Positions 24,458 to 63,206 of a stretch of 64,000 nucleotides of DNA are shown here, piece by piece (the first letter of the stretch is position 1; each line of letters starts with the position of its first letter). A model generated the notes under the pieces. It saw only the letters and a list, made by a program, of their open reading frames with translations, did not search any database and was not told where the DNA came from. A program made the translations under genes and the position numbers. The DNA is from a virus (lineage: Duplodnaviria > Caudoviricetes), in IMG/VR virus record IMGVR_UViG_3300036783_000080, positions 64,001 to 128,000 of that record. One strand, written 5' to 3'.

Positions 24458-25243
24458 TTATATATTGATTAAATTTTCCCCTTCTGGGCAGTAATGAAGT
24501 GCGAACTCTTCAAACATCTCTCCAGCATCTCCAGGAAGCTCTACAAGATTTTCTTTCTCTTCGAAAAGGCATTTGAAAAAGTCCTGTAAAGATATTCCAG
24601 TGAAAAATGGAGTCGTGAAGTTTTCTTTACACTCATCATCATTCAACATGTGTAACACCATAGACTCAAATGTCCAGAAATGATAATGATGGATTATATT
24701 ATTGTCTGTAATGATTCTGTGATGTCCAATAGCTTGTATATCCATTTGGCCAGGATAAATGTCACAATAGAAGAAATCAAACTCTTCATTGTTAGCAGTT
24801 AGAACGTCCTGACAAACAATCGTCAGCTTTTCATGTTCGCCAAAGTTCTGATAATAGAAGTCAATAACATCTTGGTTGAGCTCATATACAACAATCTCTT
24901 CCACTTCTTCCTTCTCAAGAATCTTTTGAACATAATACCCCAAACCTAATCCTGCTACACCTACACGTCCGTGAGCGTAGAACGCGGGCAGGTAATGAGA
25001 TTCAATCTCCATTGGAGTAAGACTCATCCAAGTTTGTCCGTCAATTAGGAACACGGGGACGTTGTGCAAAGGTTCTGGCCAATCCTTGTACATATATCCA
25101 TCAAGCCGCCAGTCTATCTTTTCAACAACTCGCAGCTCTATGTTTTTGTACGTTCTGTTTTGAACCTTTTTACTGAACCAAGCAATCTCCTTCTCTTGAT
25201 ACTCACGTGAAAATGGGTTATCTGGTAATTTTGGATAGAACAT
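24458..25243 (-). CDS. class I SAM-dependent methyltransferase / spermidine-synthase-like fold
   Basis: VGVAGLGLGY, IVVYELNQDVI, VCQDV, FDFFYCDI. Confidence 0.7.
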   Translation of the reverse strand: MFYPKLPDNPFSREYQEKEIAWFSKKVQNRTYKNIELRVVEKIDWRLDGYMYKDWPEPLHNVPVFLIDGQTWMSLTPMEIESHYLPAFYAHGRVGVAGLGLGYYVQKILEKEEVEEIVVYELNQDVIDFYYQNFGEHEKLTIVCQDVLTANNEEFDFFYCDIYPGQMDIQAIGHHRIITDNNIIHHYHFWTFESMVLHMLNDDECKENFTTPFFTGISLQDFFKCLFEEKENLVELPGDAGEMFEEFALHYCPEGENLINI

Positions 25244-27005: not shown

Positions 27006-27302
27006 TTAAATTTGTTCCTCTTCCTCTCCTAAAACATTTAAAGCAAGGTTTCTCATTGTTTGTATAGCCACGATTGAACGGTTATCTCTTTGTATTCTGC
27101 TTGTATCAACTTGCGTTATATCTTTTAAAGTTTTACGTAGTCTTAAACATTCTTCAGCAAGAGATGCTATGTCAGCTACCTTTAACCAATCTGGAGCTTC
27201 ATCCCCGTAATGTTTAAAATAGTCATAGAGTTCTTGAAGCTCGTGCGTTGTAAATTTACTCATCTTCAGGAAGTCCGAACAGTTTAGATACATGAACGCC
27301 AT
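27006..27302 (-). CDS. hypothetical protein
   Basis: ORF in operon; start may be internal. Confidence 0.6.
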   Translation of the reverse strand: MAFMYLNCSDFLKMSKFTTHELQELYDYFKHYGDEAPDWLKVADIASLAEECLRLRKTLKDITQVDTSRIQRDNRSIVAIQTMRNLALNVLGEEEEQI

Positions 27303-27627
27303 TTTCTCTTAGATAATCAATACCATCCGTCACTCGGTACTCTTCATGATACATAACTGTTAACACTCCTTCTTCAACTAATCGCTTTGCGCAGTCTAAA
27401 CAAGGAGAATGAGAGACAATCACCATTTTTGGGTTATCGTAACTCATCTGTTCCAAAAGATTGATTTCTGCGTGAGTACATCCGCAAGCTCCTGGGACAT
27501 TTGAACATTCTTTATGATTATAGTTTCGAGCTTTACCAATCGTTCCGTCAACAGTAATACCGATGGCCACAACTTTCATACGTTTACATTTATTGTCCAT
27601 CCCATTCACCTTCTTCATCATCTTCAC
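27256..27627 (-). CDS. dCMP deaminase
   Basis: HAE and SPCLDC zinc motifs; start probably ATG 27600. Confidence 0.85.
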   Translation of the reverse strand: MKMMKKVNGMDNKCKRMKVVAIGITVDGTIGKARNYNHKECSNVPGACGCTHAEINLLEQMSYDNPKMVIVSHSPCLDCAKRLVEEGVLTVMYHEEYRVTDGIDYLRENGVHVSKLFGLPEDE

Positions 27628-41939: not shown

Positions 41940-42564
41940 TTAACTTGCTTTTGCGTGGTCTTTCAAGTTCTTCTCGTGTTTCTTCTGCCATTTTTCGTCA
42001 ATGTAATCGAATACATTGTCATACTCATCTAAATCTTCCAATTTGTTTAATCCAACTAAATCTCCATAGTTACGTCCAATCTCAATATCCGCAACTAATG
42101 GAACATTAATCCAATCAAAGTGAGGATATTCCATAATTCCTTTTACAATCTCAATAACTTCCTTAAGTTCTGGAATGTAAACATCAAGCACAATACTATC
42201 GTGTACTGTAATAACAATCATTGACTTCATTCCAAGTTCTTTTAACTTCTTGTCAATCTTAATGAGCGATGTTACTGTAATATCTGAACCTGTAGATTGA
42301 ATAGGAGCATTTACAGCCTGTCTCATACAATCTCCAACGATACTACGTTTGTTTGAGTCAACACCAGGAAGCCTTCTATGACGTCCTGTAAGCGTTTCTA
42401 CATATTTATGCTTCTTAACAAATTTGGCTGTATCGTCAAGCCATTTCTTCACACCAGAGAACTCAGTGAAGTACGCATCAATGAACTCTCTCGCTTCTTC
42501 AACAGATACTTTCATATCTTGTGCTAGTGAATATTCACCTTTTCCGTAAATCAAGCCAAAATTT
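41940..42564 (-). CDS. polA: family A DNA polymerase, exon 2
   Basis: NFGLIYG (motif B), AVNAPIQST, TVHDSIV (motif C). Confidence 0.92.
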
Positions 42565-43514
42565 CAATATTTATATATTGTATAAGCATTTAACTTACAC
42601 ATTCTATATGTTTCCATATAGTTTAGACTATATCTTCACCGTAAGGTGCTGGGCACTCGTGGATGGATTATCGTTTTGCCTAACTCACCATCTAGTCGTT
42701 GAACCTTCTCCATACTTTAAAGGCTTTCAGGAGCTTGGATGCTGATTGTCCAATCATCTTGTTTTTCAAACATTCACGTTTACCGTTTCCAGTTACGTTG
42801 TAGTACAAGAAGCTCTAAGGAGTTTCCAGCAATTCACCCAGTTTATTTAAAAGGCTGCAAATTATATATTGGCTATTATTGTTCCATCTTCTCCTCTTAT
42901 TATGTGTTCGTTATGATGACAAGGTTTGCAAAGTATCTCAAGGTTGGAAAGCTCGTTGTTGTCTCGGTTTCTATCCTTGTGATGTACGTCTAAAGTATGC
43001 AAATCCCCATCTTTCCCGCAACGATTACATTTATGAGAAAAGTTTTCGAAAGCGAGCTTTCGATATTTAGAAATATTTTGACAAAGGTCACAACGTTTTT
43101 GATTGTTACCTGTTTTTGTAAAATGTTTCCCACAGGTTGGACATTTAATGAATGGCACTCTATATATTTTGTATGACTGGTCTCTTCTGTTATTCACTTT
43201 ATTTCGACACTCACTGCAATACTTCTGGTTGTAAGCTGAAGGGTTGAAGTCTCTTTTACATTCGTTACAAGAGACTACTTTGTCCAATAGTCTCCCCTTT
43301 TGACTTCTCCCTTTTTTCTTTCGTTCTTCTCTACACGTATTGCAGTATTTTTGAGTTCCAATCTTCGCTTTAAATGTCTTTTCACAGTTTTTACAAATTT
43401 TGTCGTATTTCGCCACATCAAAAGTTCTAATCATATTTGTTCTCTTCATCATTATCACCTCATAGTTAATATGAAAGTAATATAGAGAACAAAAGCCAAA
43501 GATTTATTTAGCTT
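42565..43514 (-). mobile_element. group I intron, 950 nt, with HNH ORF in the P1 loop
   Basis: P AATTGCTGGAAA, Q AATCAGCA, R GTTCAACGACTAGA, S AAGATATAGTCT; U.G-ended P1, terminal G; splicing restores KAVNFGLIYG. Confidence 0.92.
42862..43458 (-). CDS. intron-encoded HNH homing endonuclease
   Basis: multiple CxxC ribbons; DVHHKDRNRDNNELSNLEILCKPCHHNEH. Confidence 0.88.
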   Translation of the reverse strand: MIMMKRTNMIRTFDVAKYDKICKNCEKTFKAKIGTQKYCNTCREERKKKGRSQKGRLLDKVVSCNECKRDFNPSAYNQKYCSECRNKVNNRRDQSYKIYRVPFIKCPTCGKHFTKTGNNQKRCDLCQNISKYRKLAFENFSHKCNRCGKDGDLHTLDVHHKDRNRDNNELSNLEILCKPCHHNEHIIRGEDGTIIANI

Positions 43515-45538
43515 ACAGCCTTTGCTTTTGTACGGTCATCGTCTGTAACTTCTTCTATCGGTTTCTTCATAGAGATACTAGCAGCATATATGTGTAAATC
43601 ATGACCATCTCTGTACGCTTGAATTAATCGTTCATCACCAGAGAATATCGCAGCAATACGAAGTTCCAGCTGAGAGTAATCGGCTTGTAGGATGAGTCCT
43701 TCATCTCCATAGCGGCTTACGAACATCTTTTTAATTCCATACTGATATTCGAACGAGTACGGGTTGTTTGACTTCCTTGGGAAGTTCTGAGCATTCGGTG
43801 CTTCTGATGCTAAACGTCCTGTAACCGTACCATGTAACATAAAGGTTGGATGTACCAGTCCATCTTCCCCAATCCAAGTACGAGCTGGTTTGATATATGT
43901 TCCATAAACTTTATCCAATCTTCGCCACTCTGACAGCAAGCTCGCTATTGGATGTTTGTCCTTCAAGTACTCTAGTGTTTCTTTACCTGTAGACAAATCT
44001 GAAGTCTTTGGCTTGAACTTCTTATCTTTTCTCTGAAGCTCTTTCGCTTTGTCTGTCAAGAAAGGTGTTTCCAATCCTAACTTATCAAACAATAACTCTC
44101 TTAATTGAGCGGTTGAACCAAAGTTGAAATTGAAGTTCTTATATTTGTTGTACTTAAGTATCTCTTTGTCACGTTCATCTTTTGGTTTCTTCATCTCTTC
44201 TTGACGAATTTTGAACAGATTATGTTTCTCTCTTTCTATCTGTACAACCTCAGGGAACTCTCGCAGCTTCTCTTCGATTTTAGCCATACGAGCAGGGAAT
44301 GCCTCTTCATACTCTGCAAGTCGCTCAGGATTCAAGCGTATGCCGTTAGATTCAATGTTTCGTAACATATAAGAAGCTTCCAACATAATCTCTTTGAATA
44401 CAAAGTCCCAAGCTTCATTTTCTTCAAGGTGTTTCTTGAACGTCATATAAAGTCGGAACGTACAGTCAACATCGGCAGCGGCGTATTCTCTTAAGATTTC
44501 CCAAGGAATGTTGTCATAGTTATGTTGCATCGCTTCTGGAAGAGTTTTCTTGAACTCATCAAGGTCGTTATCGTAACCGCCCATATCAGTATGTTCCCAA
44601 GCTAAATCTTTAAGCCCGTGTCCACCACGTTCTTCTGAAACTGTAAGATAATGACATAACATTGGGTCGAATGCGAAGTTTGCTACATCAATGTTATATT
44701 TAGCAAGTAGCCACTTCATATCGAACTTACCATTATGTGCCATTTTCTTAATCCGTTTGTTTTCCAGTAGCCGCTTAATTAATCCTTTAACTTTATCAAG
44801 TACCATTCCTGGCCAAGTAAACTCTTGATGTTCAAGCGGAATCGTTACACCACGATGCGTTCCATCTGTTAGAGAGATACAGACAATTTTCTGATTCTTC
44901 AGAAATGGGTTTAAGCTCGTGGTCTCTAAGTCAAAACAGTTCCATTCGGCTTGTTCAAGTCTCTCAATCTCTTTTTCCACGTCTTCGTACGTTTCCAAAT
45001 AGTTATAATTGACTGACTTTCTTGTTAAAACATCTCGTCCTTTTTCAGCCAACTCTTTTAAGTTCTGAAGGTCTTTCGCAAAGTTCTTTGAGTGTTTCGG
45101 CTGAGTGAATAAGTTTTCTGGGTGAATGATTGGGAAAATGATATAATCATCTGTCTCAACCGCTTTCCCTCTGTACTTTGTAATCCCTGTCATACCATAA
45201 ATCTTTTTCAAAGATACATTCCCCAAAGGTACGATGATATCAGGCTTGATGACTTTTAGTTCTGCTTCAAATATTGGACCACATTCCTCAATTTCTTCTT
45301 TTACAGGAGGTCTGTCATCATCCAAAGCATACTTCACATATCCTGTGAAGTAACATTCCTCTTTGGGGTCAATTCCTAACTGTTTAAGAGCTGCCTTAAT
45401 GAGCTTCCCAGCTCTACCTGTCATATACTTCCCTTTGGCATATTCCTCTTCAGTAGGAGCATCAGCAACAAACATTATCCTAGCAGATTTCTTCCCTGTA
45501 CCAAATAACGGTTCATCTTTTAGTTCATCAATGGACAT
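43515..45538 (-). CDS. polA: family A DNA polymerase, exon 1 (UDG-like N-domain, 3'-5' exonuclease, polymerase)
   Basis: SPO1-type UDG-like N-terminus, FDLET, AHNGKFD, YAAAD, TGRL, ADYSQLELR. Confidence 0.93.
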
Positions 45539-45659: not shown

Positions 45660-45992
45660 CTATTCAGCTTTCTTTTTCTTTTTCTTGTCAAGGAAGTCTT
45701 GTACATTTAATTCTTCCACAGCTTTATCTAAGTGTGAACCAGATTTAATTTTAACAGCCATTTTAGGAGCAATTTCAAGCTCTTCATTTGTTTGAGGATT
45801 GAATCCTTTGCGTCCAGAGCGTGCTACTGGTTCAGCAGTGATTAATCCTGCAATTTGTACTTTTTCTCCAGCTTCTAAGCCAGCAGCGATTGATTTACCC
45901 ACTAATGATACTGCGATGTTTGCTAATGCCTTTGTCATTTTTCCACTTTCATCTAATTCCACCATTTTGTCTAATAAGTCTGCACGATTCAT
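45660..45992 (-). CDS. HU/IHF-family DNA-binding protein (TF1-like)
   Basis: MNRADL, GEKVQIAG, RKGFNPQTNEELEI; GGAGG RBS favours ATG 45992. Confidence 0.88.
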   Translation of the reverse strand: MNRADLLDKMVELDESGKMTKALANIAVSLVGKSIAAGLEAGEKVQIAGLITAEPVARSGRKGFNPQTNEELEIAPKMAVKIKSGSHLDKAVEELNVQDFLDKKKKKKAE

Positions 45993-46047
45993 ATTAAAAA
46001 CCTCCAATAATTTGTTTTAGTTTAGTTTATATCTATATGAAAGCCAG

Positions 46048-46482
46048 TTAGCTGGCTGTGTTCCCTTGTAGCCATTTTACAAAGTCTGCTGGATTGTTTC
46101 GTAGGATATATGTTACCCAAAGCATTCCATAGTTGGCTTCATCGCCGACAGTGTCAACTTTACTTTCACCAACTTCATCGTCTTTGCTATGAAGTGTCAT
46201 ATTTTCCAGTCTGTCAAACTTACGTGCCATATTAAAGAAGATATCTTGTTCACCACGTTTACACCAAGAACGTCCATAAGAGCCTTCTTTGCTGTATTGT
46301 AGATGAGATAAGGACACGAATGCTAAAGTCATCAATGCGTTGTCCTCTCTGAGTTCTCCTTTGTTACCAGCGATAGTTTGATGTACAAGAGCCGCTTGTT
46401 GAAGTAATCTATCAACATTGCTGTCCTCTTGAACTGGAACATACTTTTTATACAATTCATATACTTCTTCGCTATTGACCAC
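46048..46482 (-). CDS. nucleotide-modification-associated all-alpha NTP-pyrophosphatase-like protein (Nmad1/DUF1599-like)
   Basis: K...YG.SW.KRG...RKFDRL...ES..DT..D..NY. Confidence 0.7.
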   Translation of the reverse strand: MVNSEEVYELYKKYVPVQEDSNVDRLLQQAALVHQTIAGNKGELREDNALMTLAFVSLSHLQYSKEGSYGRSWCKRGEQDIFFNMARKFDRLENMTLHSKDDEVGESKVDTVGDEANYGMLWVTYILRNNPADFVKWLQGNTAS

Positions 46483-46514
46483 TGGTCTTTCATCTCCTTC
46501 ATATTATATTCTGA

Positions 46515-47024
46515 TTATAGCTGAATCATTCTCTTTGCAAAAGTCTTTTGAAGAACTTTTTGTATATCTTTCCAATCAACTGTGGACATGTACAGGTTTC
46601 TGTCGTCAATATAAATGTCCGCTCCAACTTTTCGTGCCACCTTTGGGTGGTACTTTTTCTTGACTTCAGGTAACTGGTCATTAACTGCTGCGAATAAATC
46701 TAACATATTGTGTTGTTTCAGAAACTTCATCGCTTCATAAAGGCTCTCCGCTGTACGACAAGTCCATAAAACCAACACAACATCCTTTCTATTCGCTAAC
46801 CAAGTTAACACCTCTTTACAGTGAGGACGAAGAGTCATCTGGTGACTCATCGCCTTCTCCTCTGTAATTGTTCCGTCAAAATCAACCGCTATAACAAATT
46901 TATCTGGTAAAAATTCCAACCGCTCCACTCTCCTTTTGTTTTTACACTCGCTTCCCTTCAATATAACGGATTTTATCAGCAGAATAATGAACATATAGCT
47001 CTTTAAACGTTGAAGAATCTGCAT
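46515..47024 (-). CDS. HAD-superfamily phosphatase
   Basis: IAVDFDGTI, LWTCR, RKVGADIYIDDRN; true start probably near 46919. Confidence 0.8.
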   Translation of the reverse strand: MQILQRLKSYMFIILLIKSVILKGSECKNKRRVERLEFLPDKFVIAVDFDGTITEEKAMSHQMTLRPHCKEVLTWLANRKDVVLVLWTCRTAESLYEAMKFLKQHNMLDLFAAVNDQLPEVKKKYHPKVARKVGADIYIDDRNLYMSTVDWKDIQKVLQKTFAKRMIQL

Positions 47025-48105
47025 AGAACTTATGAAGGAAGAACAAGCAAGATAACTTCCACTGACAATCTTTCATTTCTGATAACACTTGAATCATTAA
47101 GCCAAACTGTTTTAACTTATGAGCACGATACGCAATCATAGAGAAAACATTTGTACGGAAATACTCGTCAGGAATTGCTGTTGCAAAAGCCATAATCTGT
47201 TCTTGTACTTCAATTTGCTCGAAAGCAGCATCATTATGAAGTGTTTCAACAAATCCTTGATTAAATAGTACATCCAAGAAAGCAGTTGTTTCTTGTAATG
47301 TGGATTTAATTCTTGGCTCGTTTTCAAACGTGAAATGTTTTACTTCTGGAGCTTCAAGTTCATCCCCTGTTAACCCGTATGCCTTTTTGATTTTGTCTGA
47401 CTCTTTATATCCATAATCCTTTAAATAGATATGTAATGAGTCAGTAACTTGGTTATATGTTCCCACTTCAATTCCTAACCAAGAAGCAACCATTTCTTGA
47501 AGCGTAGCAAACTGACATAAGTTCGCTCCAAATGTTCCGTAATGTAAGTCATTACTTCTGTTATAGACTGTTAACTGAAGTTTGTTTTTACGGATTTTAA
47601 AACAAAGAGTCATATTACAAGGGAAGTCTTTACCCTCATAACTTGAGTTGTCAAACATCGGATTCCAAATTTGAGCAACCGCTTGTCGTGTATCCCAGTC
47701 TTTAAGTAGTTTCTCATACACATCTACCAGTTGGTCAATAGGATTGATAATTTGGCCAGTCAAGTCGTTCTTATTCCAAAAGCGTAGTCGTTCCCCATAA
47801 GGAGCGTTAAAGTACACGCCATCATCAGAGAACTCGCCCATATTCTGGTTGTACTTAAGTAAGAACTCAACGTCAGAACGTCCCGCAGAAATCCAAAGAG
47901 CTTCTGCTTGTTGGAAGAATGGGTTGATACGTCTATCCTCCAAGAAAGTAACACGGTTCAGAGGGTTTGTGAACTCAACAATTACGGGACGTAATTCTTT
48001 GATGTCTTTTCCTCTTGGAGCAACAATGTCTCCTTCGTTTTCTAATGCAACGAACGCATCCATATAAAGCTGTGATGAATTGTCATTTGTAAAGATTTTA
48101 CCCAT
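46942..48105 (-). CDS. dUMP hydroxymethylase (thymidylate synthase family)
   Basis: DTRQAV, DFPC, RSND, G..AN (Asn = dUMP specificity), SLHIY; sits in an hmU-type cluster. Confidence 0.85.
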   Translation of the reverse strand: MGKIFTNDNSSQLYMDAFVALENEGDIVAPRGKDIKELRPVIVEFTNPLNRVTFLEDRRINPFFQQAEALWISAGRSDVEFLLKYNQNMGEFSDDGVYFNAPYGERLRFWNKNDLTGQIINPIDQLVDVYEKLLKDWDTRQAVAQIWNPMFDNSSYEGKDFPCNMTLCFKIRKNKLQLTVYNRSNDLHYGTFGANLCQFATLQEMVASWLGIEVGTYNQVTDSLHIYLKDYGYKESDKIKKAYGLTGDELEAPEVKHFTFENEPRIKSTLQETTAFLDVLFNQGFVETLHNDAAFEQIEVQEQIMAFATAIPDEYFRTNVFSMIAYRAHKLKQFGLMIQVLSEMKDCQWKLSCLFFLHKFYADSSTFKELYVHYSADKIRYIEGKRV

Positions 48106-48131
48106 AGTTTGAAAAACTCCTTTCAGTATCT

Positions 48132-48172
48132 CTTACACCTTAATAAAACGGATAAGTGAAAAAGTTTCTCCT
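48132..48172 (-). promoter_or_regulatory. phage-sigma (middle-type) promoter
   Basis: AGGAGA-18-TTTTATTAA-GGTGTAAG. Confidence 0.7.
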
Positions 48173-48255
48173 GAATACATAAATTATGTGGAAAACCTTA
48201 ACTTCATAAAAGATTCCCACAGTAAACCCTATGTTATAAACTAGGAGGTGATACC

Positions 48256-48594
48256 ATGGGTGCGGGTAAATACATTCCAGGTTTAGGAAAGATTTTCAAA
48301 ATCGGTAAAGATGAGATTGAACCATCTGCGTTAGCAGGCAGTGGCGATACTTCTGCTTTGGAAGCAAGAATCAAGCAACTTGAAACTGATTTAGCTACTG
48401 TTAAAAGTACAGCTAACAGTGCCAACTCCACTGCTACTACTGCCAAATCAACTGCAGATACTGCTAAATCTACTGCTGACACTGCGAAGTCTACAGCTGA
48501 TAGCGCAACAACGAACATCAACGGTTACAAAACATCCAACGACGCTAAAGTCACTGGCATTGACAACCGTGTTAAAGCATTGGAAGCAAAATAA
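48256..48594 (+). CDS. alanine-zipper coiled-coil fibre-like protein
   Basis: TAKSTAD heptad repeats, AGGAGGT RBS, N-terminus shared with the 6292-8598 protein. Confidence 0.7.
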   Translation: MGAGKYIPGLGKIFKIGKDEIEPSALAGSGDTSALEARIKQLETDLATVKSTANSANSTATTAKSTADTAKSTADTAKSTADSATTNINGYKTSNDAKVTGIDNRVKALEAK

Positions 48595-48597
48595 TGA

Positions 48598-48630
48598 GAA
48601 AAGGAAGCTCATAGGCTTCCTTTTCTTTAT
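48598..48630. terminator. bidirectional terminator
   Basis: GAAAAGGAAGC-TCATAG-GCTTCCTTTTC. Confidence 0.85.
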
Positions 48631-49341
48631 TTACATAAATTCTTCACCAAATCCCCCATTCTTACGCTTCTGCTGGATATTCTCAATAATTCTTACAGTT
48701 GTGTTAAAACGTTCAGCAATGACCACCTGAGTGAGCTTTCCTTCCATTAGTAATAAAACAACTTCATAGCGTTCTTTGTAACTTAATGTTTTGTTTCCTT
48801 TCGGAACAAATGGAATATATTTCTCATCCATGTCTGGGTCAATATGACTCCAAGTTCTTCCATTCTTTATACTTCTGATAGTTCCTTCATCATGACCAAG
48901 TTCCCTCGCCACATCTGCTGCTGTTTTATCTGGTTGTGAATGGAAAATTCTTTTTATGTGAAGAGCTTGCTCAACAGTTAATGTGGGAGCGTTTACTGTC
49001 TTATGTCTCTTTCTTCTTTTCATATCATCCATATTATCTTGGTGCGTTCCCAGTTCTAAATGTTCTGGATTGATACAAAGACTGTTATCACACTTATGTC
49101 TGACAACCACACCATTTGGTATTGCTTCCCCGTGAGTAATAAACCACACATAGTGCGTGACTGTTAGTCCCTTTCCTTTGTTTCCTCTGGCTTGTGGATA
49201 ATTACTTCTGCAAACTCTGGGATAACCACTCACCGATATCTTATGACTCACGCACTCCCAACAATCTTTATTCTTAATATATTCTATCGGTTTACATATT
49301 TTCTTAACATCGTTCGGCTCTTGTAATGTATATGTTTTCAT
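48631..49341 (-). CDS. free-standing HNH homing endonuclease with C-terminal HTHs
   Basis: CWE, VVRHKCDNSLCINPEHLELGTHQDNMDD. Confidence 0.88.
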   Translation of the reverse strand: MKTYTLQEPNDVKKICKPIEYIKNKDCWECVSHKISVSGYPRVCRSNYPQARGNKGKGLTVTHYVWFITHGEAIPNGVVVRHKCDNSLCINPEHLELGTHQDNMDDMKRRKRHKTVNAPTLTVEQALHIKRIFHSQPDKTAADVARELGHDEGTIRSIKNGRTWSHIDPDMDEKYIPFVPKGNKTLSYKERYEVVLLLMEGKLTQVVIAERFNTTVRIIENIQQKRKNGGFGEEFM

Positions 49342-49381
49342 TAAAAATCCCTCCTGGGTAATATAAGGAGGGATTTCAAAA

Positions 49382-50473
49382 TTATACTCTTGGTTTCAAG
49401 TTGTCAACATCTGGAGTTCTTAGTTTCATCTTTTTCTTTGGACGTTTTCCTTTTGCAAAGTCATATCCTCTTTCTGTACAGTAAGAGTTGAAATACTTCT
49501 GACTTTCGCAGAACCATCCTTCAAAACAACGTAAATCCAGTTCAGCATCTTCGTTTTGATATTTGTATTCAAGTCCTAACTTCTCAAACATAGCGTTGGC
49601 AACACTTGCTGTAAAGAATACAAGTTCAGTATAAGACATATTACCTTTGTTCTCAAACACATAGTCAACACCCTTTTTGCAACCTGGCCCGCAATTCGTC
49701 CAATAATCCGCTGTCCAGTTAACAAAAGGAATATCAGTCATTTCTTCAACCATAGCTAAATCCAAGCACACTTCATAAGAGTTAAACATTCCAACAGCAG
49801 GAACTCGTGTCAGATAGTTGACTACTGATTCCATGTTATTCTTTTTATTGAATACAAAGTCAGCAATCTCATCTAAGTTGTCAATTACATATTGTAACAG
49901 ACAAATAGCATTCTCTGTTTTGTCGCCGCTCTTTTCTTTATCTGGATTGGCTGATTTTAAATCGTTTACAAAGTAAGCGTCAGTGAAGATTGTTTTTCCT
50001 TGACGTTTACGTTCTCTCAGGTTGGCTTTTGCTCGTTCCCAATCAGATGAGAATGTTTCTGGGTGAATGTATCCGATTATATCCCATGTTTCAGGTCGTA
50101 CAAACAAGCGATAGATGAAAGTGTTTAACAGAAGATACTTTCTTGACTCATCTGTATCCTTTAAGTTTGGAAGAACGTTATCAATGTAATGTAACGTTAC
50201 ACGGTCAAGCTTTCTGTCAACATTAGTGAAATGATATGTTCCCATGATTGGGTCTGTTGTCCAAGGCTTTGGCTCCTGCTCCATAACACGTTTGTACCAG
50301 ATATTTTGACGTTCAACCATATTTCTGAAGTACATTTCAAAGAAAGTTACTCCTGTTTCTGGGTCAACACGCAACTTTACATCATCATTAGGTGTATTAA
50401 TGTATTGTTCTTCCCAGTAAGGTTTATTTTCACGATTTAACGAACGCAAGAAAGCTCCATCAGTTTGTTTCAT
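49382..50473 (-). CDS. 5-hydroxymethyluracil DNA kinase (aGPT-PPlase clade 1)
   Basis: ERQNIW.KR, PWTTDPIM..YHFTNVDR.LDR, G.F.SYEV..DL, GPG.KKG, E...CE..KY. Confidence 0.85.
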   Translation of the reverse strand: MKQTDGAFLRSLNRENKPYWEEQYINTPNDDVKLRVDPETGVTFFEMYFRNMVERQNIWYKRVMEQEPKPWTTDPIMGTYHFTNVDRKLDRVTLHYIDNVLPNLKDTDESRKYLLLNTFIYRLFVRPETWDIIGYIHPETFSSDWERAKANLRERKRQGKTIFTDAYFVNDLKSANPDKEKSGDKTENAICLLQYVIDNLDEIADFVFNKKNNMESVVNYLTRVPAVGMFNSYEVCLDLAMVEEMTDIPFVNWTADYWTNCGPGCKKGVDYVFENKGNMSYTELVFFTASVANAMFEKLGLEYKYQNEDAELDLRCFEGWFCESQKYFNSYCTERGYDFAKGKRPKKKMKLRTPDVDNLKPRV

Positions 50474-50485
50474 TTCAATTCCTCC

Positions 50486-50755
50486 TTATAATTTGTTTAC
50501 ATAGTATGTCTTTACAATATGACAAATAGTTACTTCTTCTGAGTACATACCGCCAGTCTCAATAGACTCGGCTTTGTAAGTGGTTCCAAGGTCTACAATT
50601 TCATATCGAACGTTGTCAATTGTTATTCTTTCCCCAACCATATGTCTCATATCCGTTAGCGATTTAGATGTAAACGACATCACATCTTTATCTTCGCACA
50701 TGAATATAATAGTATGTTTTACATTCTCAATTGGTTGTATCTTCAATTCTGTCAC
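50486..50755 (-). CDS. hypothetical protein
   Basis: 89-aa ORF within modification cluster. Confidence 0.6.
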   Translation of the reverse strand: MTELKIQPIENVKHTIIFMCEDKDVMSFTSKSLTDMRHMVGERITIDNVRYEIVDLGTTYKAESIETGGMYSEEVTICHIVKTYYVNKL

Positions 50756-50756
50756 C

Positions 50757-51461
50757 TCATCTCGAAAATTCTTTTACATAGTTTAAGAATTGTTTTAAAG
50801 TGTCCTGCTTCTTGATAGAACTATTATCAACGACTATACTGTTTAATCCTTCATTTGCGAACTTCTCAGCGTTACGTTGTACAGTTCTCCACTTTCCTTC
50901 AATCTGTTCAACTTTGATTTTATGGAAAGTATCAGGAGAACGTCCTTTAATACGTTCTAAACAAACTTCAAAAGGTGGTAAAAGGTTGTATATGAGAATG
51001 TCTCTATGTGGGCTTTGTCTCTCTTCCAGCTCTTTAAATAGATTTAAGTATGTTGAGTAAATCGTTGAAGAAATTACACCCTCCATAAGTATGCTGAAAG
51101 GAGTCTCCCATAATGATTCAAGCGTTTGTAGTGTCTCCTCATTCCCTTTAAATCCATCCAAGCCGCCTGTCTTCGTTCTGTAACGTCCCATTGCTACAAA
51201 TCCGAATGAAGGGAAAACAGTTGCTCTATCTTTTCCATCAATCGTGAATATAAATGCTCCTCTGTCTTCTGCTAACATAGATAGTGGAACTGTAGATTTT
51301 CCTGAACCATTACATCCTCTAATATTAACAAGCATTAGTCCTTTGCGGTACTTTATTCTGCCGCCGCAGTTTTGTTTCAATGTTTCTATGAACTCTGATA
51401 CTTCAATTCGTTTTAGTTTGATAGAACTTCGTTCCATTTTATCACCTCTAGTATCAATCAT
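50757..51461 (-). CDS. P-loop nucleotide kinase of thymine-hypermodification clusters
   Basis: NIRGCNGSGKST, G.Y...TGGLD, LMEG, CLERIKGR. Confidence 0.75.
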   Translation of the reverse strand: MIDTRGDKMERSSIKLKRIEVSEFIETLKQNCGGRIKYRKGLMLVNIRGCNGSGKSTVPLSMLAEDRGAFIFTIDGKDRATVFPSFGFVAMGRYRTKTGGLDGFKGNEETLQTLESLWETPFSILMEGVISSTIYSTYLNLFKELEERQSPHRDILIYNLLPPFEVCLERIKGRSPDTFHKIKVEQIEGKWRTVQRNAEKFANEGLNSIVVDNSSIKKQDTLKQFLNYVKEFSR

Positions 51462-51482
51462 AGTTTCACCTCCAACGAGTTA

Positions 51483-51520
51483 GTACATAATAAAACGTTG
51501 GAGGTGAAAAGTTTTCTCCT
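51483..51520 (-). promoter_or_regulatory. phage-sigma (middle-type) promoter overlapping a 14-bp inverted repeat
   Basis: AGGAGA-19-TTTTATTAT. Confidence 0.7.
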
Positions 51521-54137
51521 ATTCTTCAGTAGGTTGAAGTCCACTATAATGAGCCTTGTCTAACACGTTGAGCTTTGCTTTACTACCTACAAGGAAGCCT
51601 TCAATGGTTTGTAAGAATGCTTGTTTGTAGTCTGGTTTAACAACCCACATATCGTCAACTTTTTCATAATACGTCATAACCTTCTCAAATAGCTCTTCAT
51701 CTTTGAGTTGGTCTTCAAGCTCTGAAATCTCTTCTGGAGTGAATGACGCAAAGCTGACTTCAATCATTGGAGTCCAATTCTTCAGTTTGTCTACAACTGA
51801 AACGACATCCTGTCTTGATACAATCCCAGGAATAATAGGTGAGATTGCTAGAATTGTATAAACGCCAGCATTGAAGCACTTAATAAAGCTCTCAATGATT
51901 TGGTCTGGTGTATGAGCCTTCTTCGTTGGATAGACTGACTTCCATTTGTTGTTATCCATAGTGTTCAGATGAACTCTGACTTCACTCTGTGGATGTTGAG
52001 CTAATGCTTCCACAGCCCAATCGGGGACAACTCTTCTTGTTTCAACAGAAATTGGAATGTCATGTTTTACGCAAAACTCAAAGATTGGTTGAGTTGCTTG
52101 ATGACGTTCCTCACGATAATGGAAAGGTTCAATTGGGAAGTAACACTCATCGTAACGTTGTCCAGCATCAAGATTCTGCTTCAGAAGTTCGCCATAATGT
52201 TTGTTCACACGTTTACTTCCATACGGTGCTGCAACAAAGATTCCTGAGCTTCTTTCCGTTTTAATTGGTTGTCGCACTTCCTCTTCCTCCTGTTCAGGTT
52301 CTTCCTGCTTCTGTGGTTCTGGTTGTTTCTCTTCTGGCTCTTCAAATTCTTCCTCTACTCTTTTGGCTTCATCTATTTCAGCCATAAGCTCAGCATACGT
52401 TTTTCCCTGCGGAGGTTTCACAGTTATTGCTTCTTTATCTTCTTTTTCAGGTTTGGGTTTATGAACAATGTTATCTAATATCTCGTTAACATCATCATCT
52501 CCATCCTCTTCTTCATCGTCGTCATCATCGCCATTCCCAGCCATCTGCTCCATTAAACTTGCGATAAAGTTGTCTGGCTCTTCTGACTGTTCTGCTTTCT
52601 TCTCTGGCTGTTTCTTCTCTTCTTTGACTTCTTCTTCAGGAGCTTCTTCAACCACGTCCTCCTCTTCAACGTCACAAGGCTCTGGTTGAGGCTCTGGCTT
52701 TGGTTCTTCCTTAACCTCTCCTTTTGGCATATTTACAGGAGCTGACTTTGGTGGGAGAACTAAGTCATTGTATTCAGAAATCAATAGGATTTCTTTGTCA
52801 AGTTTCCCTAAAATGCTTTCAAACTCAGATTTATTCGCTCTTTGAACTCCATTTAATGAAGCTACAAGAACAAGTTGTTGAAGTTCTTCTGGAAGAATAT
52901 CCAAGTATTCTCTGTAGTCCATGTCAGTCGTTCCAGAACGTAGGATATAATTGACAACCCATTCTACACATTGCACACGGAAGATTCCATCAATGTCAAG
53001 AATCGCTTGTTTAATAGTATAGTTATCCACATACTCCAATGCACGTTTCGTAGGTCTAGAAACAATACCTTTCTCAAGCATCGTTCCAAGGACTCTGTGA
53101 GCAATTGTCATATCTGCTACTTTCATAGCTTTTACCCATTCTTTGTAGTATTGAGATTGTAACATCTCTATCTTCTTGTCACCTTGTTCAAAATCACCAT
53201 AACGGAAGTCTTGTTCAGCAAGCTCCTTCAGTAACCACTCACGCTCAAAGTCTTCCTTCGTTTTGAAGACTGGGAACTCTCTTTCTTCGTAATAATGTTT
53301 AATCCATTTGTGGTTCTCCCAATATGCATAACGGGCTGCCCATCTCTCTTTATCCCGTCCAAAGTTCTTCTGCCACAGACGGTTGATTGTGAAAGTCATT
53401 AAGCCGCTACCCTTTTTCATGTGTCCGCCAATCCATTTAGAAGGTTCAGCAAATCGGAATAAATCATCATAGATATGTCCATCCCATACTAGTGAACGAG
53501 AATAAACATTGTTTGTGATACCTTTGGATGAGTAATTGAAATGCCAAGTTAATGGGCAAGGAATCCGTTGATGTTGAGAATCGCTCCAACGTTTCATTTC
53601 CATAAGTTCTTTCTGGATGTATCTGCGTCTTGTATATTCTAACAAGTCACGCTCATAATGCCAGAATGTAACAATCCCTTTGTCATTCCCTTTATCTTGT
53701 AGCAGAAGGTCTTTTACAGCGTGTAACTGACCACGTCCTCCAACACGTTGCATATTCTGATATGAAGTGTTAGGAAAGATTTCATCACGCTCCATCATAA
53801 TATCAAGCTGTGTTCTATCGTGTTCAGGTCGCCCAGTTTCAAGTCGGTAGTCCCAATCAGTCGTTCCGTGCCCTTTTACACGTGACATACGTCTTTGGTC
53901 ATATCGAACATCTAAGCCACAACCGATACCCAGTTCACCTTCTACAACATCAGAGTTAACACGAAGATACCAAAATAATGGGTCTGTATTGTGAGGCATA
54001 AACGTAACATAGTTGTCTTGCGTGTTATTTACTTGAAGGAAAACATTTCGCATATCGTAATTATTGTCAATCATTGCCTTCAAGGTTTTCATATAAGCAT
54101 CCCAACAGTTTTCTGCTTCAATAACGTTAAAAGCCAC
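51519..54137 (-). CDS. divergent thymidylate-synthase-like domain, acidic linker and degenerate radical-SAM (SplB-like) domain fusion
   Basis: aligns by eye with 46942-48105 (IPC...VYSRS); C-terminal EPF..E...T, ISVETR, AGV...AISPIIPGI without CxxxCxxC. Confidence 0.65.
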   Translation of the reverse strand: MAFNVIEAENCWDAYMKTLKAMIDNNYDMRNVFLQVNNTQDNYVTFMPHNTDPLFWYLRVNSDVVEGELGIGCGLDVRYDQRRMSRVKGHGTTDWDYRLETGRPEHDRTQLDIMMERDEIFPNTSYQNMQRVGGRGQLHAVKDLLLQDKGNDKGIVTFWHYERDLLEYTRRRYIQKELMEMKRWSDSQHQRIPCPLTWHFNYSSKGITNNVYSRSLVWDGHIYDDLFRFAEPSKWIGGHMKKGSGLMTFTINRLWQKNFGRDKERWAARYAYWENHKWIKHYYEEREFPVFKTKEDFEREWLLKELAEQDFRYGDFEQGDKKIEMLQSQYYKEWVKAMKVADMTIAHRVLGTMLEKGIVSRPTKRALEYVDNYTIKQAILDIDGIFRVQCVEWVVNYILRSGTTDMDYREYLDILPEELQQLVLVASLNGVQRANKSEFESILGKLDKEILLISEYNDLVLPPKSAPVNMPKGEVKEEPKPEPQPEPCDVEEEDVVEEAPEEEVKEEKKQPEKKAEQSEEPDNFIASLMEQMAGNGDDDDDEEEDGDDDVNEILDNIVHKPKPEKEDKEAITVKPPQGKTYAELMAEIDEAKRVEEEFEEPEEKQPEPQKQEEPEQEEEEVRQPIKTERSSGIFVAAPYGSKRVNKHYGELLKQNLDAGQRYDECYFPIEPFHYREERHQATQPIFEFCVKHDIPISVETRRVVPDWAVEALAQHPQSEVRVHLNTMDNNKWKSVYPTKKAHTPDQIIESFIKCFNAGVYTILAISPIIPGIVSRQDVVSVVDKLKNWTPMIEVSFASFTPEEISELEDQLKDEELFEKVMTYYEKVDDMWVVKPDYKQAFLQTIEGFLVGSKAKLNVLDKAHYSGLQPTEE

Positions 54138-54155
54138 TATTCAATCACTCCTGTT

Positions 54156-54623
54156 TTATTGATATGTTTTCTTTAAAGCCATAATAAGTCGCATTTTGTG
54201 AATGGCTGGACTTTCATAATGCTTACAAGTTCCGCCACGAGCTTCCAATAGGTCTTTAAGCTCTTCAACACTCATACCTTTAGTGTTTGGCATTCCTTCA
54301 GGGATTTCCTGCTGTTTCTTCTCTTTTTTCGGCTTCTCTTGTTTCTCTTCAACAGGAGCGGCTTCCACTTCTTTCTCTTCTGGTTCTTGCGGCTGAGTAG
54401 GGAATGGAACTTTTGGTTTGTTCGCTTCCGCATTCTTCAATGCCTGTTCCGTTTCAGGGTTGAGTTTCTTCATATCGTTGAACACGCTGTTCGATTTTGT
54501 CTTGGCTGCGCATTCCTGTTGTAAGTCGCACATCTTACATTCTTTCACCGTTGGTTCAAAAGCCTTTCCAAAACAAGGTGAACTTTCCATCTGGTTTAAT
54601 AAATCTGGGTCTGTAAATGCCAT
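54156..54623 (-). CDS. Cys4 metal-binding protein with C-terminal HeH-like module
   Basis: CFG...ECKMC....EC; MSVEELKDLL...MRLIMALKK. Confidence 0.55.
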   Translation of the reverse strand: MAFTDPDLLNQMESSPCFGKAFEPTVKECKMCDLQQECAAKTKSNSVFNDMKKLNPETEQALKNAEANKPKVPFPTQPQEPEEKEVEAAPVEEKQEKPKKEKKQQEIPEGMPNTKGMSVEELKDLLEARGGTCKHYESPAIHKMRLIMALKKTYQ

Positions 54624-55366
54624 TACGCAATAACCTCTCTTTCCTTGTTTATAACAAGTTCTGTAATAAACTTTATCTCTTTAATTGCATTGTCGAATTG
54701 TTTAGATGTAATACCAAGAGAGTCACGAATATGTTTGTATTTAACTTCAGCTTTACGTGGCAAGTTTACCTTTTTGCCTTGGTCACGTAAACATATTTTT
54801 CTTGCTCTATCTGCCCAAGAGTGCCACAATGTTTTAGGTGATGGATTAATAATCTCACATAAAACAGCGATAGCTATGTCTGAATCAAGATTGTCTCGAA
54901 TTTCTGCTGTCATTCGGTCATAACCTGATTCCACTTCATATGTAGGTGCTTCCCCAGTTGTTAAAAGAGCGGTTTCAAGGTCGTTTTCTCTTCTTGGCTT
55001 CGCCGCATCTTTAATCGCACGATACAGCGAAGTAGTAAATAACATTTTGAATTCTTCAATAGGAAGATGGTTATACTTGTCGTAAATGTCATACAGTTTA
55101 ATAATGCCAATTTGATACAAGTCTTCAACACTCAGAGATTGGTCAATGTAATTGGCTCTATCCAGATAGACTTCTTTCGCTGCGTGTTTTACCAAATTAA
55201 CGAACTTCGCATAAACAAAATCCCACTCCAACTTTGGTCTGTCCCCATGTTTGTTTTTCATAATGATGGGGATTCTCAGAATTTTCCCACTTTCATCCAC
55301 TGTTGGTTTCTTTTTATCTCTGTTAATGATGATTGGGATTCTCATAATAGTTCCGCTCTTGTGCAT
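54623..55366 (-). CDS. divergent sigma-factor-like protein
   Basis: VEDLYQIGIIKLYDIYDKY...F...FTTSL region 2; C-terminal HTH KHIRDSLGITSKQF. Confidence 0.6.
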   Translation of the reverse strand: MHKSGTIMRIPIIINRDKKKPTVDESGKILRIPIIMKNKHGDRPKLEWDFVYAKFVNLVKHAAKEVYLDRANYIDQSLSVEDLYQIGIIKLYDIYDKYNHLPIEEFKMLFTTSLYRAIKDAAKPRRENDLETALLTTGEAPTYEVESGYDRMTAEIRDNLDSDIAIAVLCEIINPSPKTLWHSWADRARKICLRDQGKKVNLPRKAEVKYKHIRDSLGITSKQFDNAIKEIKFITELVINKEREVIA

Positions 55367-62616: not shown

Positions 62617-63206
62617 TATTCAATTCCTCCTCCAGTTGAGTTGAATCCGTCAAACATACGGTCTGTCTTTCCAGCAGCTTCCATAAATTCATCAAGAGAC
62701 TGATGTTTCTTTGTGCTAACTTTCGTGTAACGTTTAATGATAAGTTGAGCAATTTGCTGTCCGTTTTTAATAACAACAGGCTCTGTATTCAAGTTAATCA
62801 ACGCAAGACGAATGTTTCCACGGAATGGACTGTCAATTGTTCGGCATAATAAGTCCAGTTTTGCTTTAGAAGTGCCGCTGCGTGTATCAACCATAGCATA
62901 GTGTCCGTTAGGAATTGCGATGTGAAGTCCAGTTTTAACTGTTAACGCTTCACCTGGTTGTAATGTATATGAACCATCTTCAGACCATTCTCCATCATTT
63001 AAACGAGCATCAAAGATTGGTACATTCAGTCCAGCATCTCCATCCTTACTATATTCAAGAGCAAAGTCCTCAAGCTCACAGAAGTAAGGCATATTTGGGT
63101 TTCCAGTAATTTGCTGTTGTAAGTGAGTAATTTCTGTTTGTAAATCTCCTACCGTTTTTTGAACATAGTCTTTAATTTCTGGTGTTAACATATTATCTCT
63201 CCTCAA
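62616..63206 (-). CDS. dut: trimeric dUTPase
   Basis: DAGL, RSG, TIDSPFRGNI, IAQLI, R...GFNSTG. Confidence 0.9.
   Translation of the reverse strand: MRRDNMLTPEIKDYVQKTVGDLQTEITHLQQQITGNPNMPYFCELEDFALEYSKDGDAGLNVPIFDARLNDGEWSEDGSYTLQPGEALTVKTGLHIAIPNGHYAMVDTRSGTSKAKLDLLCRTIDSPFRGNIRLALINLNTEPVVIKNGQQIAQLIIKRYTKVSTKKHQSLDEFMEAAGKTDRMFDGFNSTGGGIE

Follow-up and report, generated by a model that had tools for sequence, protein, structure and literature searches.

How does a bacteriophage that replicates with 5-hydroxymethyluracil (hmU) in place of thymine go on to modify that base, and which of its enzymes act after polymerization? The question is raised by the gene cluster at positions 45660-54623 of a 64,000-nucleotide stretch (hereafter, the window) that corresponds to bases 64001-128000 of the complete 150,650-bp virus record IMGVR_UViG_3300036783_000080. 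The source is a Nachito-like Spounavirinae (Herelleviridae) Bacillus phage, its closest named relative being Bacillus phage Nachito (93% nucleotide identity across 86% of the locus). We consider the locus likely to be a thymidine hypermodification system of the SP10 type, based on hmU and placed in an SPO1-like backbone, with transcription genes (gp27/gp28) on one side of the probable insertion point and replication genes (gp29-gp31) on the other. From the gene content, we predict with high confidence that hydroxymethyl-dUTP (hmdUTP) is used in replication and that hmU is subsequently modified within the DNA.

A likely SP10-type locus in an SPO1-like backbone

Followed from position 54623 down to 45660, the cluster encodes a Cys4 protein (155 aa), an 872-aa protein, a P-loop protein (234 aa), an 89-aa open reading frame (ORF), an HMUDK_hel protein (363 aa), a protein combining HNH and helix-turn-helix (HTH) domains, a 112-aa protein on the plus strand, a thymidylate synthase (TS) homologue, a HAD-family protein, a 144-aa protein and an HU-family protein. 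All pathway genes lie on the minus strand, the 112-aa ORF at 48256-48594 being the sole plus-strand gene. The ORFs that the initial annotation had assigned to the cluster are all present where it placed them, on the minus strand, with several of their labels corrected below, but two genes inside the cluster were overlooked, namely, the HNH + HTH gene (48631-49341) and the plus-strand ORF (48256-48594).

The comparison with SP10-like phages that the same annotation had proposed as a check shows that the region is colinear with gp184-gp190 of phage SP10. The shared order includes a gp27-like gene, gp185, the kinase, the aGPT-Pplase clade 1 protein (Pplase1), a small ORF on the opposite strand, the dUMP hydroxymethylase, gp189, the HU-family protein and a family A DNA polymerase fused to a uracil-DNA glycosylase domain (UDG-PolA), with identities of 43-75%; both loci lack ADDT and both carry a radical-SAM-derived barrel devoid of the iron-sulphur cluster loop. 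The two differ in that gp186 is a fusion in SP10 but is split in the window, with the 89-aa ORF between the two parts, and in that the window additionally contains the HAD phosphatase and the HNH endonuclease; furthermore, the host of SP10 belongs to a different Bacillus group than that of the window phage. The virions of SP10 contain N-alpha-glutamylthymidine and no hmU (PMC8989533).

With SPO1 and SP8, the window shares a backbone consisting of the gp28 sigma factor, gp27, the gp29 dUMP hydroxymethylase, a TF1-like protein, an intron-containing UDG-PolA, dCMP deaminase and dUTPase. By contrast, the SPO1 stretch that was searched, which begins upstream of gp28 and reaches as far as the start of gp29, yielded no homologue of the kinase, Pplase1 or the TS-like domain. 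The literature regards SPO1 as non-hypermodified and describes the DNA of SP8 as fully substituted with 5-hydroxymethyldeoxyuridine (5-hmdU) (PMC8989533, PMC5889632). Every pathway gene of the window is under purifying selection (dN/dS of 0.04-0.13 against Nachito). Taken together, the colinearity and the 55-75% identity with SP10, the activity of the SP10 kinase in vitro, the purifying selection and the absence of the module from the gp27-gp29 region of SPO1 lead us to accept the above interpretation, and the same evidence, apart from the SPO1 comparison, bears out the earlier proposal of replication with hmdUTP followed by post-replicative modification of hmU.

One DNA kinase and its helical partner

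The two proteins that correspond to SP10 gp186 are as follows.

50757-51461, minus strand: 5-HMUDK, a 234-aa P-loop kinase (Pfam HMUDK_HMUD1, PF18748; Walker A motif GCNGSGKS)
49382-50473, minus strand: aGPT-Pplase clade 1/HMUDK_hel helical protein, 363 aa (Pfam PF18723)

The 234-aa protein, encoded by a single-copy gene in the genome, matches PF18748 with 73.9 bits (cut-off 27) and is 64% identical to residues 6-221 of SP10 gp186, whereas the 363-aa protein matches PF18723 with 172.9 bits (cut-off 25) and is 67% identical to residues 274-632, in the C-terminal half of gp186. The initial annotation had described two kinases, a 5-hmU DNA kinase at 49382 and a P-loop kinase at 50757. Because the Walker A motif is present in the 234-aa protein, whereas neither this motif nor a P-loop occurs in the 363-aa sequence, there is one kinase rather than two, namely, the product of 50757-51461. 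SP10 gp186 is a 637-aa fusion, the N-terminal part of which has been named 5-HMUDK and the C-terminal part aG/PT-PPlase clade 1 (PMC5889632); its lysine-rich linker of about 50 residues has no counterpart in the window. The split is compatible with function given that the kinase domain of SP10 gp186 alone, like the entire protein, phosphorylates 5-hmdU in DNA in vitro (PMC8989533). The GenBank record of Nachito already annotates both the kinase and Pplase1. In one metagenomic relative (L022:1666-3705), two tandem copies of 5-HMUDK are found between the gp185-like gene and Pplase1.

The 5-HMUDK, HMUDK_hel (Pplase1) and dUMP hydroxymethylase are also shared with phages M6, PaMx11, ViI and PhiW-14, and gp53 of M6 is homologous to the C-terminal domain of the 872-aa protein. 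The M6-type systems combine 5-HMUDK with ADDT, with or without radical SAM, pyridoxal phosphate (PLP)- and flavin (FAD)-dependent tailoring enzymes. The window differs from these systems in the lack of ADDT (PF18724), the place of which is taken by a TS-fold enzyme with a predicted catalytic Cys, in the loss of the radical SAM loop and in the lack of PLP, FAD and acetyltransferase genes. Neither PF18724 nor an ADDT-like domain was detected in the complete 150,650-bp genome, and the matches of the A4 profile were confined to the barrel and the kinase, with none to the N-terminal domain of the 872-aa protein.

The 872-aa gp185-like protein

The 872-aa protein (51519-54137, minus strand) is encoded directly upstream of the kinase gene, as is gp185 in SP10, and is 65% identical to gp185 over 81% of the query (tblastn), with 74% identity in the N-terminal and 47% in the C-terminal domain. 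Four parts can be distinguished.

53328-54137, minus strand: predicted TS-fold catalytic domain, aa 1-~270, with Cys194 as the predicted nucleophile (hhalign, Foldseek, VIA)
52758-53327, minus strand: conserved helical extension, aa ~271-460, with an invariant KELAEQD block and other conserved blocks; helical in the AlphaFold2 (AF2) model
52278-52757, minus strand: acidic low-complexity linker, aa ~461-620, recognized from the sequence and variable in length among relatives
51519-52277, minus strand: radical-SAM-derived barrel without the CxxxCxxC loop, aa 621-872 (BLASTP, alignment, AF2/Foldseek)

The initial annotation had labelled this protein a TS-radical SAM fusion. Profile and fold searches uphold both the TS fold and the radical-SAM-derived fold, but the iron-sulphur motif has been deleted.

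The N-terminal domain has no Pfam match, including to Thymidylat_synt, in the search of the window or at E-values up to 10; at the latter threshold, Pfam likewise gave nothing useful for the helical part, and a phmmer search of PDB sequences with the 872-aa protein yielded no match. When profiles were used, only thymidylate synthases were recovered from the PDB sequences with the N-domain family, and weakly so (E ≥ 0.25), whereas hhalign against the dUMP hydroxymethylases gave a probability of 95.8% (E = 7.9e-9, 214 columns), placing RIPC194PLTWHF on the Pro-Cys motif of TS and YSR214S215 on the YxRS motif. The AF2 model of the domain (pLDDT 69.5, pTM 0.73), which is poor over residues 68-136 and over residues 159-193, the latter stretch being bordered by Cys194, retrieves the CMP hydroxymethylase MilA and TS in Foldseek (E = 8e-8); in VIA, it aligns with MilA at Z = 21.2 (rmsd 3.8 Å over 280 residues) and with thymidylate synthases at Z = 12-13 (12.7).

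Nine residues, D63, G74, D94, W95, D164, R191, C194, R214 and D225, are invariant among 14 family members that diverge down to 19% identity. C194, R214 and S215, the equivalents of C146 and Arg166/Ser167 of Escherichia coli TS, are invariant or nearly so, and their 20-residue spacing is as in TS. Asp225, located 11 residues past Arg214, occupies the position of E. coli TS Asn177, which is involved in uracil recognition, and is an invariant Asp rather than Asn; we take an Asp at this position to be typical of cytosine-specific TS relatives. The domain has the fold, the Pro-Cys nucleophile motif and the downstream Arg-Ser pair in common with ThyA and the dCMP and CMP hydroxymethylases (MilA), but differs from the TS superfamily at large by a large disordered insert (residues 68-136), the helical extension of about 190 aa, the Asp at the Asn177 position, the lack of a Pfam match and the fusion to a barrel resembling that of DNA-acting enzymes. 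Judging from the profile alignments and the model, the N-domain is a true TS fold with a catalytic Cys and, unlike other members of the TS superfamily, it probably acts on DNA.

The C-terminal domain is homologous to the radical SAM isomerase gp53 of phage M6 (BLASTP, E = 1e-14), but the homology begins right after the CxxxCxxC motif of gp53, and the alignment amounts to a clean deletion of the cluster loop of about 23 residues. Neither CxxxCxxC nor another close three-Cys pattern is present in the barrel domain of any of the 20 family members. The fold itself is recognizable, given that the AF2 model of the barrel (pLDDT 89.4) has spore photoproduct lyase (SPL) as the top Foldseek match (E = 1.5e-6, TM ~0.6), and the score against the Pfam radical SAM model is 21 bits, under the cut-off of 29.5; a search with the C-domain for homologues of near length found nothing. 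The gp185-like family shares a partial TIM barrel with SPL and the radical SAM enzymes annotated as 'DNA repair photolyase', from which it differs by the deleted loop. Because of this deletion, the barrel, as judged from its sequence, cannot bind a canonical [4Fe-4S] cluster nor perform canonical radical SAM chemistry. The cluster-less state extends to SP10 gp185, which has been listed as 'Radical SAM' (PMC5889632).

Relatives of the TS-like domain and a domain swap in LysYB1

The TS-like N-domain family is rare, with 13 proteins in a set of 5.8 billion sequences and 15 representatives by exhaustive search; a search of IMG/VR for related loci with alignment A1 recovered four loci only. In a tblastn search of a phage collection, the TS-like domain was matched in six Bacillus phages only, whereas M6-like records matched the barrel alone. 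Among distant relatives of the N-domain (19-35% identity), 5-HMUDK is encoded one or two genes downstream in six of the eight readable contexts, and in the seventh, the kinase position is occupied by an unassigned 221-aa ORF. The genes that come next in these contexts are often Pplase1, a TS gene, a nucleotidase (HAD or HD), the 144-aa family and UDG-PolA, arranged as in the window. ADDT is missing from all eight contexts, according to precomputed Pfam lists within 6-8 kb. The architecture is variable, with one relative carrying an extra P-loop domain and another having two neighbouring genes, one for the TS-like part and one for the barrel. The former (P0019, L011:8001-10568) has its extra AAA_18-like P-loop at the N-terminus and is neighboured by a DUF2284 metal-binding protein and an HD nucleotidase; Pplase1 was not detected at this locus.

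The syntenic protein of Lysinibacillus phage LysYB1 (639 aa, L006:6858-8777) contains the same cluster-less barrel (43% identity). Comparison of the LysYB1 protein with the TS-like family by hhalign was negative, and hence the two N-domains are unrelated. The LysYB1 N-domain has a sub-cut-off match to Pfam ADDT (E = 8.8e-5), and in its family (P0038-P0072), six of the 22 members independently match ADDT, also below threshold. This family is far larger than the TS-like one, and its members occur by themselves or as fusions, either with the barrel or with 5-HMUDK (~530 aa). The unannotated LysYB1-type family has an invariant Cys within a KxCSFRNLFK motif. On the sequence comparisons, we read the TS-like and ADDT-like N-domains as a case of non-homologous displacement, in which two different Cys-dependent modules would take up the same position within a shared architecture.

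Proposed pathway and alternative explanations

By orthology with SPO1 and SP10, dCMP deaminase and dUTPase would supply dUMP, which the TS homologue would convert to hydroxymethyl-dUMP (hmdUMP), and the HAD phosphatase probably clears competing dTMP or other deoxynucleoside monophosphates (dNMPs). The UDG-fused PolA would then polymerize hmdUTP, with the TF1-like protein coating the hmU DNA. Following replication, the 234-aa kinase would phosphorylate 5-hmdU in DNA to 5-phosphomethyldeoxyuridine (5-PmdU), the phosphate of which would be displaced, so that some sites would end up as canonical T and others as an amino-acid adduct; by likeness to SP10, the adduct would most likely be N-alpha-glutamylthymidine. 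In the TS-fold domain, Cys194 is envisaged to add to C6 of 5-PmdU, upon which loss of the phosphate would generate an exocyclic methylene for the amino acid to capture. The cluster-less SPL-like barrel might bind DNA or the flipped base without engaging in radical chemistry, and Pplase1, common to all hypermodifying phages, could serve a shared step, possibly T formation. A route of this chemistry was proposed for SP10 by Witmer in 1981 and is the same as that of the ADDT enzymes in other phages, which displace the phosphate by a C6-thiol/exocyclic-methylene route (PMC8989533).

For the TS-fold domain of the 872-aa protein to be the group transferase, we see an even chance. The assignment draws on the kinase linkage of its relatives, the absence of ADDT from the genome, the ADDT-like swap in LysYB1 and the TS fold with an invariant Cys, as well as on the fact that the M6 adduct is formed without the clade-1 Pplase (gp55) of that phage, whereas the clade-2 ADDT is required (PMC8989533). 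The fuller proposal, namely, that the gp185 N-domain is the first TS-superfamily enzyme to act on DNA and a non-homologous replacement of ADDT, with the barrel as a cofactor-less module for binding DNA or the base, is tentative and falls somewhat short of even odds.

Several observations weigh against the overall interpretation or parts of it. TS chemistry fits hydride delivery, that is, T formation, as naturally as it fits amino-acid capture, and the substrate pocket may not be uracil-like, considering Asp225 and MilA as the best structural match. Within 6 kb of P0024, a distant TS-like relative, there is no kinase gene. The LysYB1 N-domain is called ADDT-like from Pfam matches that all fall below threshold, and this domain family gave negative results against the single M6 gp51 sequence both in hhalign (probability 0.5) and in pairwise BLASTP. 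SPO1 gp27.1 (L003:9504-10361), encoded right after gp27, aligns with the barrel family (hhalign probability 69%, E = 4e-5, 166 columns) and may be a diverged copy or relic of the barrel in a non-hypermodifying phage, in which case the link between the barrel and hypermodification would be weaker. Finally, the adduct in the virion DNA could be something other than glutamate.

On the contig of P0024, the TS-like relative is found amid two intact radical SAM genes, Dam and an N6/N4 methyltransferase, a setting that may represent a different base-modification system.

One alternative concerns the product. An adduct other than N-alpha-glutamylthymidine, whether a different amino acid or amine or a further tailored derivative, is a possibility to be taken seriously, if on balance a doubtful one. 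Identity to the SP10 enzymes is only 65-75%, and the two phages have hosts from different Bacillus groups; with respect to SP10 gp185, the C-domain (47%) is far less similar than the N-domain (74%). Moreover, the ligands of ADDT-type systems switch between related phages, with glycine, serine, putrescine and diaminopropane all being used (PMC8989533, PMC13458397). Against this alternative, no PLP, FAD, acetyltransferase or intact radical SAM enzyme was seen in or beside the cluster, and the gene content is otherwise as in SP10.

The main rival, conceivable although unlikely, has the roles of the two candidate proteins reversed, such that the TS-fold domain reduces the methylene derived from 5-PmdU to T with a folate or nicotinamide hydride, and glutamyl transfer falls to Pplase1, in keeping with its original name. 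The classical TS cycle indeed ends with hydride transfer to the exocyclic methylene (PMC8989533), and SP10 turns its non-hypermodified hmU into T, leaving no hmU in the virions; in addition, SP10 encodes Pplase1 as a fusion with the kinase, and the helix-hairpin-helix superfamily to which Pplase1 belongs includes the proven ADDT transferases. However, M6, ViI and PhiW-14 also form T from hmU, and the M6-like records have no match to the TS-like domain. Because the matches to this domain in the phage collection come from six Bacillus phages alone, T formation is more simply assigned to the shared kinase and Pplase1, and in LysYB1, the place of the TS-like domain is taken by an ADDT-like domain rather than a reductase.

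Action of the 872-aa protein on free nucleotides before replication, producing a second modified dNMP, is very unlikely. To our knowledge, every solved TS relative acts on a mononucleotide, with MilA, the closest fold, using CMP, and Arg214/Ser215 correspond to the phosphate-binding pair of TS. Nevertheless, the protein is fused to a barrel homologous to the DNA-acting enzymes M6 gp53 and SPL and is tightly linked to a DNA kinase, and hypermodification in SP10 takes place at the polymer level (Witmer 1981, cited in PMC8989533). Least probable is that the post-replicative genes are inactive relics and the virions carry plain hmU as in SPO1, as the missing cofactor loop of the radical SAM-like domain and the split of gp186 might suggest, given that all genes are intact with dN/dS of 0.04-0.10, the loop is also lost in the hypermodifying SP10 and the kinase domain of SP10 needs no fusion partner for activity.

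Precursor and supporting genes

The remaining genes of the cluster, together with the two precursor genes found elsewhere in the window, are the following.

46942-48105, minus strand: dUMP hydroxymethylase, orthologue of SPO1 gp29 and SP10 gp188 (Pfam Thymidylat_synt, 72 bits; phrog_5131, 2.8e-117)
46515-46919, minus strand: HAD-type phosphatase, 134 aa, true start at ~46919 (DxDGT motif; NCBIfam NF046079)
46048-46482, minus strand: 144-aa protein of the SP10 gp189 family (56% identity to SP10 gp189)
45660-45992, minus strand: HU/TF1-like DNA-binding protein, homologue of SP10 gp190, start probably at ATG 45992 (Pfam Bac_DNA_binding, 64.9 bits)
48256-48594, plus strand: 112-aa coiled-coil, alanine-zipper-like ORF, homologue of SP10 gp187 (tblastn; Pfam Alanine_zipper, 34 bits)
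48631-49341, minus strand: free-standing HNH + HTH homing endonuclease gene (Pfam HNH_3, 44 bits; HTH_28)
27259-27603, minus strand: dCMP deaminase (Pfam dCMP_cyt_deam_1, 35.7 bits, above cut-off; 58% identity to SPO1 gp21.8)
62619-63191, minus strand: dUTPase (Pfam dUTPase, 59.5 bits, above cut-off; 91% identity to the Nachito dUTPase)

The dUMP hydroxymethylase is 55-65% identical to its SP10 and SPO1 counterparts (65% against the partial SPO1 gp29 sequence), so that its earlier label, backed by Pfam and phrog_5131, stands, as do those of the HU/TF1-like protein, which matches Bac_DNA_binding and is 96% identical in aa sequence to a 110-aa protein of Nachito, and of dCMP deaminase and dUTPase, both of which score above the Pfam cut-offs. 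The HAD phosphatase label likewise holds, the superfamily motifs VDFDGT, LWTCRT and K...DD all being present; the match to NF046079 (BT0820 HAD; E = 3e-21) is under the equivalog cut-off. In L011, L015 and the P0026 contig, the HAD position is taken by an HD YfbR-like nucleotidase, and this swap fits the dTMPase known from hmU phages, the HAD protein being a probable dNMP/dTMP nucleotidase.

The 144-aa family is kept just downstream of the TS gene, past the phosphatase where one is present (L011, L015, L020 and L022). The initial annotation had called the window protein an Nmad1-like pyrophosphatase. Atlas links it to DUF1599 clusters (0.93), and BLASTP in a small database gave E = 1e-3 to a neighbour protein annotated by Pfam as DUF1599; by contrast, the DUF1599 model (PF07659) has no match in the whole genome, and the 144-aa protein has no Pfam match at E-values up to 10. 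The protein may thus be a divergent member of Nmad1/DUF1599, a likeness that we retain as a lead, whereas nothing supports the pyrophosphatase activity.

The 112-aa plus-strand ORF is 66% identical to its Nachito homologue and 33% identical to SP10 gp187 (tblastn), with dN/dS of 0.23; it contains TAKSTAD repeats, and its N-terminal part is also kept in phages YungSlug and LysYB1. The HNH + HTH endonuclease gene, located between Pplase1 and the TS gene at a position where Nachito holds an unrelated 215-aa ORF, is outside the modification pathway. The UDG-PolA gene (41943-45538) is split by about 950 bp (42564-43510) that include an HNH ORF (42862-43458), whereas the Nachito gene is uninterrupted and encodes 882 aa; the interruption probably represents a group I intron, of the kind present in SPO1 gene 31. 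Elsewhere in the window, the gene at 24461-25243, annotated in Nachito as a methyltransferase, has only a weak Pfam match, to the Maf glycosyltransferase N-terminal domain (E = 1.3e-4).

Two small genes without a role in the pathway

The initial annotation had suggested that two further proteins might be uncharacterized members of the pathway.

54156-54623, minus strand: Cys4 + SAP/HeH-like protein, 155 aa, orthologue of SPO1 gp27 (tblastn, synteny)
50486-50755, minus strand: 89-aa ORF, probably 86 aa from TTG 50746 (Nachito homologue; own GAGGTGA ribosome-binding site)

In the case of the Cys4 protein, this proposal does not hold. The protein matches SPO1 gp27 in tblastn (~37% identity, 97% coverage, E = 3e-12), and its gene adjoins a gp28-like sigma factor gene (54623-55366), an arrangement as in SPO1, where gp27 is annotated with 'regulation and/or late gene expression'. 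Apart from a weak SAP/HeH-like match at the C-terminus, Pfam searches at E-values up to 10 gave nothing useful. Homologues are found in 35 Herelleviridae records, including SPO1, SP8, SP82G, CampHawk and CP-51. Because gp27 homologues are also present in phages with plain hmU DNA, the Cys4 protein is not a pathway member; by its orthology, it is assigned to the transcription backbone, as a late-gene regulator, and is not specific to hypermodification.

The 89-aa ORF has a homologue in Nachito only (52% aa identity). Its dN/dS of 0.20 indicates a real gene, and its dS of 1.83, which exceeds that of the genes on either side (0.3-0.45) four- to sixfold, implies cassette exchange by recombination. 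It is absent from SP10 and from the metagenomic relatives L020, L021 and L022, all of which have the same pathway genes; no useful match was obtained from Pfam at E-values up to 10, and Atlas gave no functional lead. The possibility that it represents the inter-domain linker of SP10 gp186 was rejected in view of the lack of similarity and the presence of its own ribosome-binding site. The slot between the kinase and Pplase1 is variable, being occupied by the linker in SP10, an unrelated 89-aa ORF in LysYB1, three unrelated ORFs in YungSlug, a gap of ~80-130 bp in two metagenomic relatives and a second kinase copy in another. Given the restriction to Nachito, the variability of the slot and the absence from SP10 and three pathway-bearing relatives, the 89-aa ORF is a lineage-restricted accessory gene rather than a component of the pathway. 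One of the YungSlug ORFs (L004:13056-13586), 176 aa in length, contains a Tad2-like (anti-Thoeris) domain (Pfam, 51.9 bits), which suggests that the slot collects anti-defence cargo.

Implications for SP10-type and Nachito-like phages

The cluster is a further member of the SP10 type, and the type of system was already known. For SP10, a classical hypermodified phage, only the DNA kinase has been shown to work, and the literature covered here names neither a role for gp185 nor a glutamate transferase or T-regenerating enzyme. The locus, together with the comparative data, narrows the candidates for the transfer and T-forming steps of SP10 to two proteins and comes with predictions at the level of residues, namely, Cys194, Arg214 and Asp225, and for the role of the barrel. 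For the Nachito-like phages, one of which infects Bacillus anthracis and has been proposed as an auxiliary tool for pathogen diagnosis (PMC13118943), the present reading corrects the interpretation given in a 2026 paper on the sister phage JC307, in which the TS gene was taken to serve dTMP synthesis and hypermodification was not mentioned (PMC13118943). If the DNA of these phages is hypermodified, restriction mapping, nanopore sequencing and the evasion of host defence would all be affected.

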